64,000 nt of DNA from Escherichia phage vB_ESM-pEJ01. The notes beneath the pieces are model-generated. The model had not been told where the DNA came from, did no database searches, and saw only the letters and a list, made by a program, of their open reading frames with translations. A program made the position numbers and the translations under genes. Numbering within the stretch: position 1 is the stretch's first letter; each line of letters begins with the position of its first letter. Shown piece after piece: positions 27,421 to 31,937 of the stretch. Location of the stretch: the sequence record OP114734.1. One strand, 5' to 3'.

Positions 27421-28890
27421 CTATTCCCCATTGCCATTATACTTTCTTTGCTTAGTTATCCACACTCTAACCATCTCTACTGATTCACCGTCAGACGGAT
27501 CAAGAGTTTTTCCTTTTTTCTTCATGCGGTACTTAAATCCGTTAAATCTTGCATTCTCTTGCTCGTTAAAGTCGAACATCTTTTTAAATGATTTTCGCCC
27601 TTTACGCTCACCACATTCTAGCGGAATCATTCGGTCTGTTATTACATTGGCATTAGGTAGAAACGTTTTTAGATAATCCACCAACGCCCAATCAGGAACA
27701 TATAGATTAACATTCTCCTTGCTCTCGTTGTCTCTCAGGTTACAACGCAAACATAATTGAAATGCTGGTTCCAGATAATCAGACACATGACGCGCTTTCA
27801 AAAACTCATTTGTCGGGAGATCACAACTATTAGCAAGACCTTTTAAAATATCAATCTCCCATCGTTGAGGGTTAAAGCTGAACATCACAGCAACATTTTT
27901 ATGATGAATGTAAGAGTTAAGACCATAAGATCCGTAAGGTATCCGCTCACCAATACCATTTGTACACGCTTCACGGTCCCGATTCACGGTATAAATGAAG
28001 TCATCACCACATTCATTTTTAACCATATCAACAAGACGTTCAAAGGTATTGTTTGTTTCTGACTGGTGACGCGACCATCGTTCGGAGTCCGTCATGAGGA
28101 TGATATTAACTCTATCTGTATTTTTATACTCTTTGAAATATAGTCGGGATTCTAGCGCACTCGGAACAAAATCGCAATTTTCATAGTATCGTAGATACTT
28201 CCCGCTATATGTATCAAAGAGATTTGCACATGCTATCGTAACCTTTTTAAAGTCTCCCCACGTACCGTGTTTGTTATCGTTCAAGAAAACAATTTTCGAC
28301 CCGTTCTTCCGGTGTCCTTCGTTATGTTTTACCATAACGTTGATTTTCTTCTCTAATAACGCCTCATAAAGCCCTCTAAGAGAAGAATCGATCATATCAG
28401 TACCATCCTTTGCACTTTCTATCTTTTCTTTGATAGCGGCCTTCTCAGAGTCTTTTAGAACTAAGTTCTGTAGGCATTCCGATTCGTCGGCGATTGGTTC
28501 GCAATGCTTCGTGATAAGTTCAAGATTAGACTTAAACGGATACTCATTAAATTCAACCAGTTGAGGAACTTCATCAATGTAAAGAGCATATTCACCAAAC
28601 ATTTTTGAACGTTCCATATTAGATAACGCTGTATGTGTAATGAATATCACATCAGCACCATCTTTAACTGATTGCATTATCGACGCTTGCACTGTCTTAA
28701 GGCTTCTTAGTCTTGTGCTATCAATCAAGACAGCACGACCGCCCATTCTTTTAAACTTATTGTAAGATTGTTCACTTAAAACACGAGATGGCGAAGCAAT
28801 AACCGCTTTTTCTTTTGTCTCTAGGACGTGGGAAAGTATAGCATCAGTTTTCCCCGCCGCTGGCAATGCGATTAATGTTTCAATCTTCAT
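27421..28890 (-). CDS. P-loop NTPase of unknown function (489 aa)
   Basis: Walker A LPAAGKT near N-terminus; candidate Walker B ALYIDEV about 95 aa later; large unassigned C-terminal region; sits where T4 carries alpha-gt. Confidence 0.6.
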   Translation of the reverse strand: MKIETLIALPAAGKTDAILSHVLETKEKAVIASPSRVLSEQSYNKFKRMGGRAVLIDSTRLRSLKTVQASIMQSVKDGADVIFITHTALSNMERSKMFGEYALYIDEVPQLVEFNEYPFKSNLELITKHCEPIADESECLQNLVLKDSEKAAIKEKIESAKDGTDMIDSSLRGLYEALLEKKINVMVKHNEGHRKNGSKIVFLNDNKHGTWGDFKKVTIACANLFDTYSGKYLRYYENCDFVPSALESRLYFKEYKNTDRVNIILMTDSERWSRHQSETNNTFERLVDMVKNECGDDFIYTVNRDREACTNGIGERIPYGSYGLNSYIHHKNVAVMFSFNPQRWEIDILKGLANSCDLPTNEFLKARHVSDYLEPAFQLCLRCNLRDNESKENVNLYVPDWALVDYLKTFLPNANVITDRMIPLECGERKGRKSFKKMFDFNEQENARFNGFKYRMKKKGKTLDPSDGESVEMVRVWITKQRKYNGNGE

Positions 28891-29177
28891 TAGAAACCCT
28901 TACGTCGTGCTTTCTGGCATTTCTTGATCATTTTATCAGAAATTTCGCGCTTAGGTGCAATCTCTTTCACACCGAAAGCACTAATGCCAAATTCAGAGAG
29001 AATATATTCAACTAACAATTCACGCACACGCGCTTTACCGATATTCACGCCGTTATTTTTCAGATATGTCTGACCTTCGACTTGCATCAGATCTAAATCT
29101 GCGTCGGTAATATTGATTTCTTCCATGCGCCCAAATCGAGAATAAACCATGTGTGCGATTGCATTGTGTACTAACAT
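28890..29177 (-). CDS. hypothetical protein (about 95 aa)
   Basis: Track ORF 28890..29195 begins at TTG; ATG at 29177 has GAGGA SD. Confidence 0.5.
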   Translation of the reverse strand: MLVHNAIAHMVYSRFGRMEEINITDADLDLMQVEGQTYLKNNGVNIGKARVRELLVEYILSEFGISAFGVKEIAPKREISDKMIKKCQKARRKGF

Positions 29178-29198
29178 AATATATTCCTCACTCAAGAA

Positions 29199-29357
29199 TT
29201 ACTTAATGATACTTACTTTACCAGATCCGTGACAATGAGCGCAACACCCATCACCACGCAATCCTGTTCCGTTACAGTGTTTACACTTCTTCAACGGTAA
29301 AGCCATTATAGCAAATAAAGCAATAATGAATACCGAAACTAAATTCTCAATAATCAT
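29199..29357 (-). CDS. small membrane-anchored protein with DnaJ-type zinc finger (52 aa), not in ORF track
   Basis: MIIENLVSVFIIALFAIMALPLKKCKHCNGTGLRGDGCCAHCHGSGKVSIIK: one hydrophobic helix then two CxxCxGxG repeats; GAGGG SD. Confidence 0.4.
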   Translation of the reverse strand: MIIENLVSVFIIALFAIMALPLKKCKHCNGTGLRGDGCCAHCHGSGKVSIIK

Positions 29358-29616
29358 AAATCGCCCTCAGTTCTTTATAGCCTCCAATGTGCTCGTTGTC
29401 AATGAATATCTGGGGGTATACAAACCGGAGGCTCTTTGAGTTTAGCCTCCCCGCCAGTTCTTCAATCATATCACGGTCGGGAATAATGTCAACCCCGACC
29501 TGCTTGAATACTGGTTTAAGTGTATACGGAATACCCAGATCATCCAGTAGCTTCATTGCACTAATACAACCATAACAATGATAAGCCTCTTTCGGTATAC
29601 CGTATATCTCGATCAT
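29347..29616 (-). CDS. glutaredoxin/NrdH-like redoxin
   Basis: CxxC active site YHCYGC near N-terminus, 89 aa. Confidence 0.7.
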   Translation of the reverse strand: MIEIYGIPKEAYHCYGCISAMKLLDDLGIPYTLKPVFKQVGVDIIPDRDMIEELAGRLNSKSLRFVYPQIFIDNEHIGGYKELRAIYDY

Positions 29617-30089
29617 TTCTCAGCCTTTAATCTTTCTAGTTCTTCTTCCAGTTCCTTGATCCGTTGGTCGCGTTCAAAGTCACGCTGTAACTTAGTGGCG
29701 AATACTCGTTTAAACTGATTGTAATCATCGATTTTAAACACTTCTTCTTCGCCATAGCGACGCACAGAAACTTCGTAGTTATTGAAGAATTGTTGCATCA
29801 TTGCTTCGGATGATAGTTCTGCTGATACTACTTTAAAATATTGATCTTCTGTAGGCGAAAACCAATTACAAGCATAAAGATAAACCTTTTCATTGTCTGG
29901 ACACTGGTAAGCCTTACCATCGATTTCAATCACAGAAACATATTCAGGTATACTAGATGAATCAATAGCTAAGACTTTAAACGCACGGTCCCCGATAAAC
30001 TCGGAGATCACACGATTCGCATCACTGGTTGCAAATGCTTTACGCGCTTGTTCGTTTTTCCACTGATAGGTCATACCAACAACAAACAT
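29613..30089 (-). CDS. modular paralog family member (one N-terminal beta-domain plus conserved C-terminal helical module)
   Basis: VGMTYQWKNEQARKAF...FKVLAID...IEIDGKAY...WF; start set to ATG 30089 (GAGGA SD); paralogous to neighbours. Confidence 0.55.
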   Translation of the reverse strand: MFVVGMTYQWKNEQARKAFATSDANRVISEFIGDRAFKVLAIDSSSIPEYVSVIEIDGKAYQCPDNEKVYLYACNWFSPTEDQYFKVVSAELSSEAMMQQFFNNYEVSVRRYGEEEVFKIDDYNQFKRVFATKLQRDFERDQRIKELEEELERLKAEK

Positions 30090-30090
30090 A

Positions 30091-30915
30091 TTACCATCCT
30101 CGCTCTTTACCAATCAAAAATTCAACTTCACGACGTTTAATGTCTTCTTGAAGGTCTTTAATCTTCTGGCGATCTTGCATGATTTCATCCATCTTGTCAA
30201 GTGCCGCAATGAAATCATCGAAACGTTCAAAGGTTTTACCTTCATTTGCTTCGCCAAATTTAACCATTGTCAGGCCGTAACGACTACTAAACAGACGTTT
30301 CAACTGTCCAACGATTTTAGAATCAGTGGTTATAACTTCCAATTCTTCTACTTCACGAAAGAATTTTCTATCAGAATCAATAAACCAGCTAGTTCCTTTA
30401 TGGTCTCTATCTTCGGTTGCGCTCATTAGAGTATGGTCTTTACCATCAATTTCAATTACATCAATTTGCCCACATGGACTAACATTTTTAACAGTAAAAG
30501 GTCTATAATTTATTGCTCGTGCAATAACATAATTAAGGTTAGATACGTTTTCAGCATAATGGCAGAAGTCGGTCATAGCATTCGCATCTTTCCAAGTATA
30601 AGTTTTACCAACTTCCCATTTCTGGGGAACTTCTTCAACTTCACGAAAGAATTTTCTATCGAATGGACTAAAGAAATATGTTGCCGTCCAAATGTCTTTT
30701 CCTGTAGCAGTTTTCGCCGTATGATAAACACCGTCTAGCTCTATTGCATAAATCCAACCGTTACCATCGATCTCGATGATGGTAAATGGCTTGTCACCAA
30801 TAGCTGCACTAATATCGCTGTTAAGTGGAGAAAGAACACCTTCTCCGTTAGTAATAAACTCAGTTTTAGCGTTTTCGTCTTTCCAGGTGTAAGTTTTACC
30901 AATTTCCCATTTCAT
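30091..30915 (-). CDS. modular paralog family member with two tandem N-terminal domains
   Basis: MKWEIGKTYTWKDENAKTEF... and QKWEVGKTYTWKDANAMTDF..., both ending DRKFFREVEE; DNA repeat cttcacgaaagaattttctatc at 30351 and 30639. Confidence 0.6.
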   Translation of the reverse strand: MKWEIGKTYTWKDENAKTEFITNGEGVLSPLNSDISAAIGDKPFTIIEIDGNGWIYAIELDGVYHTAKTATGKDIWTATYFFSPFDRKFFREVEEVPQKWEVGKTYTWKDANAMTDFCHYAENVSNLNYVIARAINYRPFTVKNVSPCGQIDVIEIDGKDHTLMSATEDRDHKGTSWFIDSDRKFFREVEELEVITTDSKIVGQLKRLFSSRYGLTMVKFGEANEGKTFERFDDFIAALDKMDEIMQDRQKIKDLQEDIKRREVEFLIGKERGW

Positions 30916-30927
30916 AATATATTCCCC

Positions 30928-31395
30928 TTAACCGATTTTATCAAGTTCGTTTAATGCTTTCTCTGCTTCCTGTATAGCTTGCACCCTTTCCGGCATTTTG
31001 TCAAGAAAATCTTTCAACTCTTCAAAACTGGAGATATGACGCAAGGCGTTAGCACCGATAGCCGCATGTGATTTGCATTCAAAGCGGATTTTATAATTAT
31101 CCATCGCCAACTTGAGAAGATCAATTAATTTAGATTCTTCTGGAATAATAATAATTTCTTCAAATCTGCTACGGTCATGATCCAGAAACCAACAAGATAG
31201 ACCTACATCGGTTGAACTCATATAAGTTCCATCATGAAGATAAACAGATCGCACGTATCCTTTTTTCGCATCAACCGACGCAACTTTAAACGGTAATCGC
31301 AGATATTTCAAATAATCAACATCATACCATTTAAAAAATTGGTTTGCATCTTTTACATCTTTCCACGCATAGGTCTTACCAACTTCCCATTTCAT
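30928..31395 (-). CDS. modular paralog family member
   Basis: MKWEVGKTYAWKD...FKVASVD; start set to ATG 31395. Confidence 0.55.
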   Translation of the reverse strand: MKWEVGKTYAWKDVKDANQFFKWYDVDYLKYLRLPFKVASVDAKKGYVRSVYLHDGTYMSSTDVGLSCWFLDHDRSRFEEIIIIPEESKLIDLLKLAMDNYKIRFECKSHAAIGANALRHISSFEELKDFLDKMPERVQAIQEAEKALNELDKIG

Positions 31396-31399
31396 AATA

Positions 31400-31927
31400 T
31401 CATCTCTCATTTTTGATACGTGATTCTAATTGGATCATACGGTCGCGCGTTTGTTTGTATTCTCGGATAGCACCGATCCGGCTAGGCATACCATCCAGTA
31501 CGCTCTTAATACCTTCTAGGGTAGTAATTTTGGCAATGCTATTATGTAACCCCATCTTATCGATCAACTGAATGTCGTAGGCTTCCATAAGCAGACCCAG
31601 ACGTTCTAAAGTTAGGTCTTCTTCTTTTTCTTTCGATTCTGGAATCTTAGGTTCAATAGTAACTTCGGTAAAGAAACGACGCTCACCAGCCCAAAACCAC
31701 ACACCATAACAATTGATAGAAGATTCTTTTAACGTCATCGGCTCGGTATCTTCACCGATAATGGTAATTTCACTAACATCACCATCAGCATCAAGTGCTT
31801 CTACCTTAAACGAACGACCGTTCAACAGGTCAATAATCATACTGTTAATGGATGACGAAAATTTAGTCAGTTCAGCTTTTGATATTTCACACTTAATGTT
31901 GTAGATCTTACCTACTTCCCATTCCAT
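31400..31927 (-). CDS. modular paralog family member
   Basis: MEWEVGKIYNIK...FKVEALD...RRFFTEV; start set to ATG 31927 (GAGGTGA SD). Confidence 0.55.
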   Translation of the reverse strand: MEWEVGKIYNIKCEISKAELTKFSSSINSMIIDLLNGRSFKVEALDADGDVSEITIIGEDTEPMTLKESSINCYGVWFWAGERRFFTEVTIEPKIPESKEKEEDLTLERLGLLMEAYDIQLIDKMGLHNSIAKITTLEGIKSVLDGMPSRIGAIREYKQTRDRMIQLESRIKNER

Positions 31928-31937
31928 AATAATCACC

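Follow-up and report, generated by a model that had tools for sequence, protein, structure and literature searches.

In the genome of Escherichia phage vB_ESM-pEJ01, a short open reading frame (ORF) between nrdH and 55.2 encodes a protein with one hydrophobic helix and two CxxCxGxG repeats of the kind found in the zinc-finger domain of DnaJ, which raises the question of whether this protein is a miniature chaperone, a redox factor or a module of a different type. A sequence-only reading of the window, i.e., the whole stretch of 64,000 nt analysed here (sequence record OP114734.1), had described the ORF as unannotated and its product as a possible membrane-tethered mini-chaperone or redox-active factor.

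The ORF, here called ZnF, lies on the minus strand (the earlier reading stated none) at 29199..29357 and is complete. It spans 159 nt, with 52 codons and a stop, from an ATG at 29357-29355 to a TAA at 29201-29199, and encodes MIIENLVSVFIIALFAIMALPLKKCKHCNGTGLRGDGCCAHCHGSGKVSIIK. The ATG is located within the final codons of nrdH, the two genes overlapping by 11 nt, and a Shine-Dalgarno (SD) sequence, GAGGG, was found as claimed within the nrdH 3' end on the same strand (29364..29368), 6 nt 5' of the start codon. The single hydrophobic helix and both repeats proposed earlier were likewise recovered. Residues 6-22 (LVSVFIIALFAIMALPL; 29292..29342, minus strand) form the top 17-residue hydrophobic window of the protein, with a mean Kyte-Doolittle value of 2.8, and AF2 models (pLDDT 71 with 5 sequences and 75.5 with 19 sequences) consist of an N-terminal helix at residues 2-19 and a small beta knuckle. 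This predicted membrane-anchor helix, which also carries an E-x-x-x-S motif shared with relatives (see below), is preceded by MIIEN, an acidic N-terminal tail, and followed by KKCKH. The motifs CKHCNGTG (residues 25-32) and CAHCHGSG (residues 39-46) make up the putative zinc knuckle CKHCNGTG-LRGDGC-CAHCHGSG (codons 25-46; 29220..29285, minus strand), which was assigned from its invariant Cys and Gly residues, its spacing and its fold match. Across the six frames of the window, CxxCxGxG was matched four times; two matches contain stops and the other two are both in the ZnF ORF, while a stop-free pair was obtained in none of 200 shuffled windows. As judged from sequence and model, C25, C28, C39 and C42 are the predicted ligands of one Zn(Cys)4 site, since the presence of only two repeats implies one zinc centre. 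An architecture of a membrane anchor plus a single C-terminal zinc knuckle, in a bitopic membrane protein, can be regarded as highly probable.

The description of the ORF as unannotated was wrong, as both the exact protein and its ortholog are present in public records. The window phage is an RB49-like T-even phage of the genus Krischvirus (Straboviridae); over the 1 kb around the ZnF gene, it shares 98.7-99.5% identity with the listed RB49-like phages and at least 95% with all 58 matching records. The RB49 ortholog, RB49p046 (NP_891617.1; UniProt Q7Y3T0), is a “hypothetical protein” encoded between nrdH and 55.2 and has a model in BFVD. Annotations of the ORF exist for RB49, Phi1, JSE and kvi and for most, but not all, of the 58 Krischvirus records; 290 public contigs, among them Phi1 and JSE, carry the exact protein. 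The W115 and Makalu phages label the product “putative membrane protein,” and “DnaJ-class molecular chaperone” is the name given by one source to a near-identical member. The gene has accordingly been known as a hypothetical protein since deposition of the RB49 genome, and the DnaJ-like motif and the membrane helix have each already been flagged by automated annotation. Literature searches retrieved no study of the family and no expression, zinc, topology or partner data for any member.

Conservation in relatives, which had been named as a check on the ORF, was examined by tblastn. The ORF is intact over residues 1-52 in 58/58 Krischvirus records at 96-100% identity. RB49-type alleles from metagenomes are 44-87% identical to the window protein and 41-87% identical to each other in mafft codon alignments; in these more divergent relatives, the nrdH-ZnF-55.2 order, the overlapping start and the SD sequence (GAGGG, or AAGGAG in contig L014) are all kept. 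Nei-Gojobori pairwise dN/dS values among the RB49-type alleles range from 0.13 to 0.63, and omega per region is 0.22 for the finger, 0.51 for the anchor and 0.31 for the tail. The ZnF gene is real, conserved and under purifying selection. A spurious or non-functional ORF might be suspected from its short length, its omission from the annotation of some records and the rare frameshifted copies in Felix-type phages. Against this stand its presence in every Krischvirus genome, dN/dS values below 1, the retained SD sequence and start codon, and the invariance of Cys and Gly residues among family members that are 27-65% identical; in addition, an Rfam scan of positions 28700-29900 returned no RNA family match that would give the region an alternative reading. 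The chance that the ORF is spurious is negligible, and the conservation data effectively refute it.

The genomic context bears on when the gene might be used. All genes around it are located on the minus strand in the order nrdG, four paralogous ORFs, nrdH, ZnF, 55.2, a helicase-like gene and gene 55, which constitutes an early-type accessory region. The upstream neighbor nrdH (29347..29616, minus strand) encodes a glutaredoxin of 89 aa that matches PF00462 with 23.4 bits (cutoff 22.9) and is annotated as nrdH in RB49; the overlap of its stop with the ZnF start and the surrounding synteny are kept in all RB49-type relatives. The downstream neighbor 55.2 (28890..29177, minus strand) matches PF24454 (DUF7570) with E = 1.4e-28 and is annotated as gp55.2 in RB49. 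In T4, 55.2 is an early ORFan whose product acts as an inhibitor of host topoisomerase I and increases the fitness of the phage (PMC4396842). A mechanical ORF call places the start of 55.2 at a TTG at 29195 (101 aa) and public annotations use the ATG at 29177 (95 aa); the conserved N-terminus MLVHNAIAHM supports the latter, which leaves a spacer of 21 nt to the ZnF stop. No ZnF ortholog was found in the nrdH to 55.2 interval of T4, where 55.3-55.6 and 55.8 lack the motif and the architecture. ZnF is an accessory gene that is absent from T4.

A sigma-70-type promoter-like sequence, TTGACA-16-TATGAT with an extended -10 TG (11/12 consensus matches), is located at 29465..29492 on the minus strand, inside nrdH and about 108 nt upstream of the ZnF ATG. 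Equivalent sites are found in contigs L014 (TTGACA-17-TATAAT, 12/12, positions 243-271) and L015 (TTGACT-16-TACAAT with TG, positions 385-412). Persistence of the site at places where the NrdH protein has diverged suggests that the DNA signal itself is under selection. As a match to the consensus, it suggests a candidate embedded early promoter for ZnF and 55.2.

The relationship to DnaJ was evaluated at the level of the finger and of the whole protein. The Cys-rich (CR) domain of DnaJ contains four repeats that form two interleaved zinc centres and is flanked by the J domain, the G/F region and the client-binding domains. A profile of the ZnF family matched the CR domain of E. coli DnaJ (1exk) with E = 8e-12 over both repeat pairs, human DNAJA3 with 1.6e-7 and Anti-TRAP of Bacillus licheniformis (3lcz) with 1.4e-6. 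An exhaustive search of 1.8 billion representatives gave 348 matches, many of them full-length DnaJ proteins matched in the CR domain. The earlier claim of a DnaJ-type zinc-finger module thus holds, with bona fide DnaJ among the matches. The best PDB match of the AF2 model was Anti-TRAP 3ld0 (rmsd 0.7 A over 24 residues, 38% identity, probability 0.96), followed by 2bx9, DnaJ 1exk and lambda Q. The finger aligns without gaps and with identical spacing to both Anti-TRAP 3lcz and repeats 3-4 of DnaJ 1exk, and thus appears, from sequence and model, to be a single-zinc, two-repeat module of the DnaJ-CR/Anti-TRAP type.

The likeness to DnaJ ends with this module. Motif sequence and spacing resemble an adjacent pair of DnaJ repeats, and the CxxCxGxG motif is common to both proteins, but ZnF has two repeats and one centre instead of four repeats and two centres, and it carries a membrane anchor. 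A J domain with an HPD motif is lacking: Pfam finds none, and residues 1-24 form a hydrophobic helix. The curated DnaJ models remain far below their cutoffs (PF00684, 14.6 bits vs 32.7; TIGR02349, 18.8 vs 377). An identity as a DnaJ/Hsp40 chaperone was rejected on these grounds, as a protein with no J domain and half a Cys-rich domain cannot act as an Hsp40.

Anti-TRAP (AT, RtpA) of Bacillus (PDB 2bx9, 3lcz/3ld0; Pfam PF15777; NCBIfam NF058604) provides the closest solved structures. It is a protein of 53 aa in which two CXXCXGXG motifs bind one zinc that is needed for assembly and function, and it acts through binding TRAP (PMC2896485). Anti-TRAP and ZnF correspond in size (53 vs 52 aa), in having exactly two CxxCxGxG motifs with a 14-residue spacing from Cys1 to Cys3, and in the knuckle fold. 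However, the C-terminal helix of Anti-TRAP builds soluble trimers and dodecamers, whereas ZnF ends 6 residues past the finger and is modelled by AF2 without a C-terminal helix; its sole helix is N-terminal and hydrophobic, in keeping with a membrane anchor. The gene also differs in having no trp or T-box context and a host other than Bacillus. The score against NF058604 is 12.8 bits (cutoff 65), and PF15777 is reached at E < 0.01 by only 1/19 family members. Identity as Anti-TRAP was rejected on the basis of the NF058604 score and the missing trimer helix.

A third point of comparison is FIP (FtsH5-interacting protein, At5g02160) of Arabidopsis, which combines a transmembrane helix with two CXXCXGXG repeats on the stromal side and was found to bind FtsH5 in yeast two-hybrid and pull-down experiments (PMC5915565). 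The mature plant protein consists of one membrane helix followed by the two repeats on the stromal, i.e., cytoplasm-equivalent, side. The same succession of helix and repeats is seen in ZnF, with an orientation predicted from charge bias only, and the resemblance is architectural only; FIP differs in being eukaryotic and in having a transit peptide, and FtsH binding was shown for FIP alone. Weak likeness was also detected to the finger of lambda Q-type antiterminators (4mo1, 7ubj; profile E of about 2e-4, fold ranks 4-6), and two-repeat DnaJ-like knuckles are often reused by phages, as in an insert of the HMO-2011-type DNA polymerase (PMC9038755; PMC5313236). Those modules reside inside large soluble proteins, while ZnF consists of knuckle and anchor only. 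Pfam matches to Gad1, zf-AtTam37, GRXCR1-2_C and DUF5351 were all sub-threshold and limited to the Cys motif, and were consequently left out of the classification. No PADLOC or NCBIfam model reached its cutoff. An accurate label for the product would be membrane-anchored zinc-knuckle protein of the Anti-TRAP/DnaJ type, in place of DnaJ chaperone or heat-shock protein.

The protein belongs to a wider phage family. It matches the HMM of PHROG 3931 (function unknown) with E = 4.3e-10, residues 7-48 aligning to profile positions 15-56 of 59, which amounts to a significant match across most of its length. Relatives with the same plan occur in Felixounavirus (e.g., wV8 gp138, 58 aa), in Kolesnikvirus (e.g., gp087 of Erwinia phage M7, 54 aa), in other Ounavirinae-like contigs and in scattered metagenomic sequences. 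In an alignment of 19 short members, which are 27-65% identical to the query except for one close allele (P0003) at 87%, C25, C28, G30, G32, C39, C42, G44 and G46 are invariant (19/19), and the spacing from Cys1 to Cys3 equals 14 in 17/19. The anchor is variable, yet the RB49-type and Felix-type proteins share E-x-x-x-S, an acidic residue followed by Ser four positions on, at its N-terminal edge; from this shared motif, the helix may be more than a passive anchor.

Some members depart from this plan. Four rare Felixounavirus variants of 63 aa (P0007, P0009, P0010 and P0011) are frameshifted and have lost the zinc knuckle; the frameshifts occurred at different points and all lead into the same alternative frame. 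They represent either independent inactivations, in which case the gene is dispensable at least sometimes, or sequencing errors. Several large proteins (P0012, P0014-P0016, P0029 and P0087) contain 3-7 tandem copies of the two-repeat knuckle unit, in some cases preceded at the N-terminus by a signal-peptide-like or HNH-like segment. Evidently, the half-DnaJ unit serves widely as a building block in proteins other than chaperones.

The orientation in the membrane determines the compartment in which the knuckle would reside. In the window protein, no positive and one negative charge precede the helix, three positive and no negative charges follow it, and the C-terminal domain is net basic; according to the positive-inside rule, this pattern points to an N-out/C-in orientation in the inner membrane, and the zinc site would then be exposed to the reducing environment of the cytoplasm. 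The same bias is seen in all RB49-type alleles, with 0 positive and 1 acidic residue in the N-terminal flank and 1-3 positive and at most 1 acidic residue right after the helix. Some Felix-type post-helix linkers are acidic and a few distant members appear N-in or signal-peptide-like, so that the predicted topology is firm for the Krischvirus clade only and may not be uniform across the family. The opposite arrangement would have the Cys-rich domain exported and disulfide-bonded in the periplasm, where, in the manner of T4 Imm or Sp, it could contribute to superinfection exclusion or protect the envelope. Such a role would suit a small early membrane protein within an accessory region, and three members (P0099, P0141 and P0108) indeed carry N-terminal positive charges or signal-peptide-like leaders. 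The charge bias of the window protein and of all RB49-type alleles speaks against this arrangement, as does the invariant CxxCxGxG geometry, which corresponds to zinc sites of the cytoplasm; an exported domain is very unlikely.

The chaperone and redox roles of the earlier reading were weighed next. ZnF would in this case be a membrane-tethered holdase or a thiol-disulfide oxidoreductase that uses its CxxC pairs, zinc-bound or not, on client proteins at the membrane that are unfolded or oxidised, possibly together with the co-transcribed NrdH glutaredoxin. Several observations are compatible with this: the sequence similarity to the DnaJ CR domain, the overlap of the ZnF start with nrdH in all RB49-type relatives, the sub-threshold match to GRXCR1/2_C (the Cys-rich tail of glutaredoxin-domain proteins), an extra cysteine, Cys38, next to Cys39 that is conserved in the RB49 and Felix types, and the description of J-less DnaJ-like zinc-finger proteins of plastids as Hsp70-independent chaperones (PMC5915565). 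However, half a CR domain is combined here with neither a J domain nor client-binding C-terminal domains, every DnaJ model stays far below its cutoff, and the closest solved structure belongs to Anti-TRAP, which is no chaperone but an antagonist that binds a protein. Conservation of Cys38 does not extend to the whole family. The adjacency to a glutaredoxin gene is lost in the Felix O1-like relatives: in Felixounavirus, Kolesnikvirus and other Ounavirinae-like lineages, the upstream neighbor of ZnF is not a glutaredoxin and shows no thioredoxin-fold match, and a functional tie to glutaredoxin as a general feature was rejected for this reason. The proposal of a mini-chaperone or redox-active factor found no positive support, and a holdase or oxidoreductase is doubtful.

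The Ounavirinae-like genomes point to a different neighborhood. In four divergent lineages, the ZnF homolog immediately precedes rIIA-rIIB; in one case, an HNH endonuclease has been inserted in between. On this basis, ZnF might be an accessory factor of the rII, lysis-timing or membrane-integrity system that works with rIIA and rIIB and not on a host target. In Krischvirus, however, the ZnF gene is about 28 kb from rIIA and other small ORFs precede rIIA; these small RB49 ORFs were considered as counterparts of ZnF and dismissed as different genes. No rII-linked phenotype is known, and linkage within one subfamily may be inherited gene order, which renders an rII-specific role decidedly improbable. 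As a separate observation from the same region, gp085 of Erwinia phage M7, located two genes upstream of the Kolesnikvirus ZnF homolog (positions 2170-2631 of contig L006), contains an RNA-chaperone domain of the ProQ/FinO family (PF04352, E = 7.7e-19).

The ZnF gene diverges much faster than its neighbors. Relative to contig L013, protein identity is 50% for ZnF, 94% for NrdH, 99% for 55.2 and 100% for the helicase-like protein; dN is 0.375 for ZnF vs 0.001-0.029 for the flanking genes, and dS is 0.92 vs 0.05-0.47. The hairpin tip (residues 33-37) is found as LRGDG, LRGNG, VTYNG, INNTG and VSHNG. A 100-nt scan of nucleotide identity revealed ZnF as one among several short pockets of divergence in a mosaic locus. 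The notion of a unique “hypervariable island” was therefore downgraded, as the several pockets and the elevated dS indicate that mosaic recombination explains much of the pattern. It fits recombinational allele replacement in combination with a pressure that is relaxed or diversifying at the anchor and at the hairpin tip. Fast divergence of this kind is typical of host-interaction genes and is not proof of an arms race; the high divergence reflects, in part, mosaic recombination.

Mosaicism is apparent elsewhere in the locus. The helicase gene (27421-28890, minus strand), which encodes a DEAD-like protein of 489 aa (PHROG 2467), occurs as two alleles, one found also in L013 (about 100% identity) and the other in contigs L008 and L011 (68-70% identity, dS > 1.8), where the flanking genes are 93-99% identical; it is clearly a recombination cassette. 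The four paralogous ORFs between nrdG and nrdH (29613-31936, minus strand; 29613-30113, 30091-30915, 30928-31410 and 31400-31936) have a common N-terminal W(E/K)(V/I)GKTYxWKD module, which occurs twice in the ORF of 274 aa. The paralog of 166 aa (29613-30113), the sole one scanned, matched PHROG 5347 (function unknown) and, weakly, goF-like modulators of mRNA metabolism. Two of the strongest divergence pockets relative to other phages of this type (about 30.4-30.6 kb and 31.8-31.9 kb, about 50% nucleotide identity) are situated inside this paralog array.

Among the roles considered, we favor an early, inner-membrane-tethered zinc module that binds a host or phage protein, to which we assign a probability of roughly 45%. 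According to this model, a small bitopic inner-membrane protein would be made early in infection, with its 5-residue acidic N-terminus in the periplasm and residues of about 6-22 spanning the membrane. The basic C-terminal 30 residues would be cytoplasmic, and the four cysteines would bind one zinc and fold into a beta-hairpin knuckle of the DnaJ-CR/Anti-TRAP type. The knuckle would then serve as a membrane-held protein-binding surface that sequesters, inhibits or recruits its partner, with a target specificity that would depend on the variable parts, i.e., hairpin tip and anchor. An early, host-directed role is in agreement with the conserved sigma-70-like site upstream, the neighboring 55.2 and the accessory nature of the gene. 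We infer zinc binding, topology, early expression and protein binding alike. The binding role in particular is drawn by analogy from two precedents, the block of TRAP by Anti-TRAP, to whose family ZnF does not belong, and the binding of FtsH5 by plant FIP, which ZnF resembles in architecture.

Two narrower forms of the binding model name what the partner could be. The first, a sub-case in which ZnF is a specific modulator of FtsH, is suggested by the architecture and predicted topology that it has in common with FIP. This likeness is architectural, FIP homologs have been reported in land plants only (PMC5915565), and nothing in the phage context points to FtsH; a specific FtsH modulator is accordingly highly improbable. 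According to the second, bolder form, which is clearly unlikely as it stands, ZnF would be a membrane-tethered antagonist of a specific host inner-membrane protein, engaged in an arms race in which allele exchange diversifies its tip and anchor. Examples of targets would be an FtsH-like protease or an abortive-infection or defence effector of the kind that rII genes counteract. If true, Krischvirus and Felix O1-like phages would share a new class of anti-host factors that depend on zinc and are of minimal size (about 50 aa).

Should the favored model of a membrane-held binding module be right, ZnF would be among the smallest modular host-interaction proteins, in which a helix places the protein and a zinc knuckle grips the target. 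The gene is present in every sequenced Krischvirus and across the Felix O1-like phages, a group in wide use for phage therapy and biocontrol. Its rapid allelic turnover makes it a candidate determinant of host range or anti-defence, and its linkage to rIIA and rIIB in Ounavirinae could give a handle on the poorly understood function of the rII genes.
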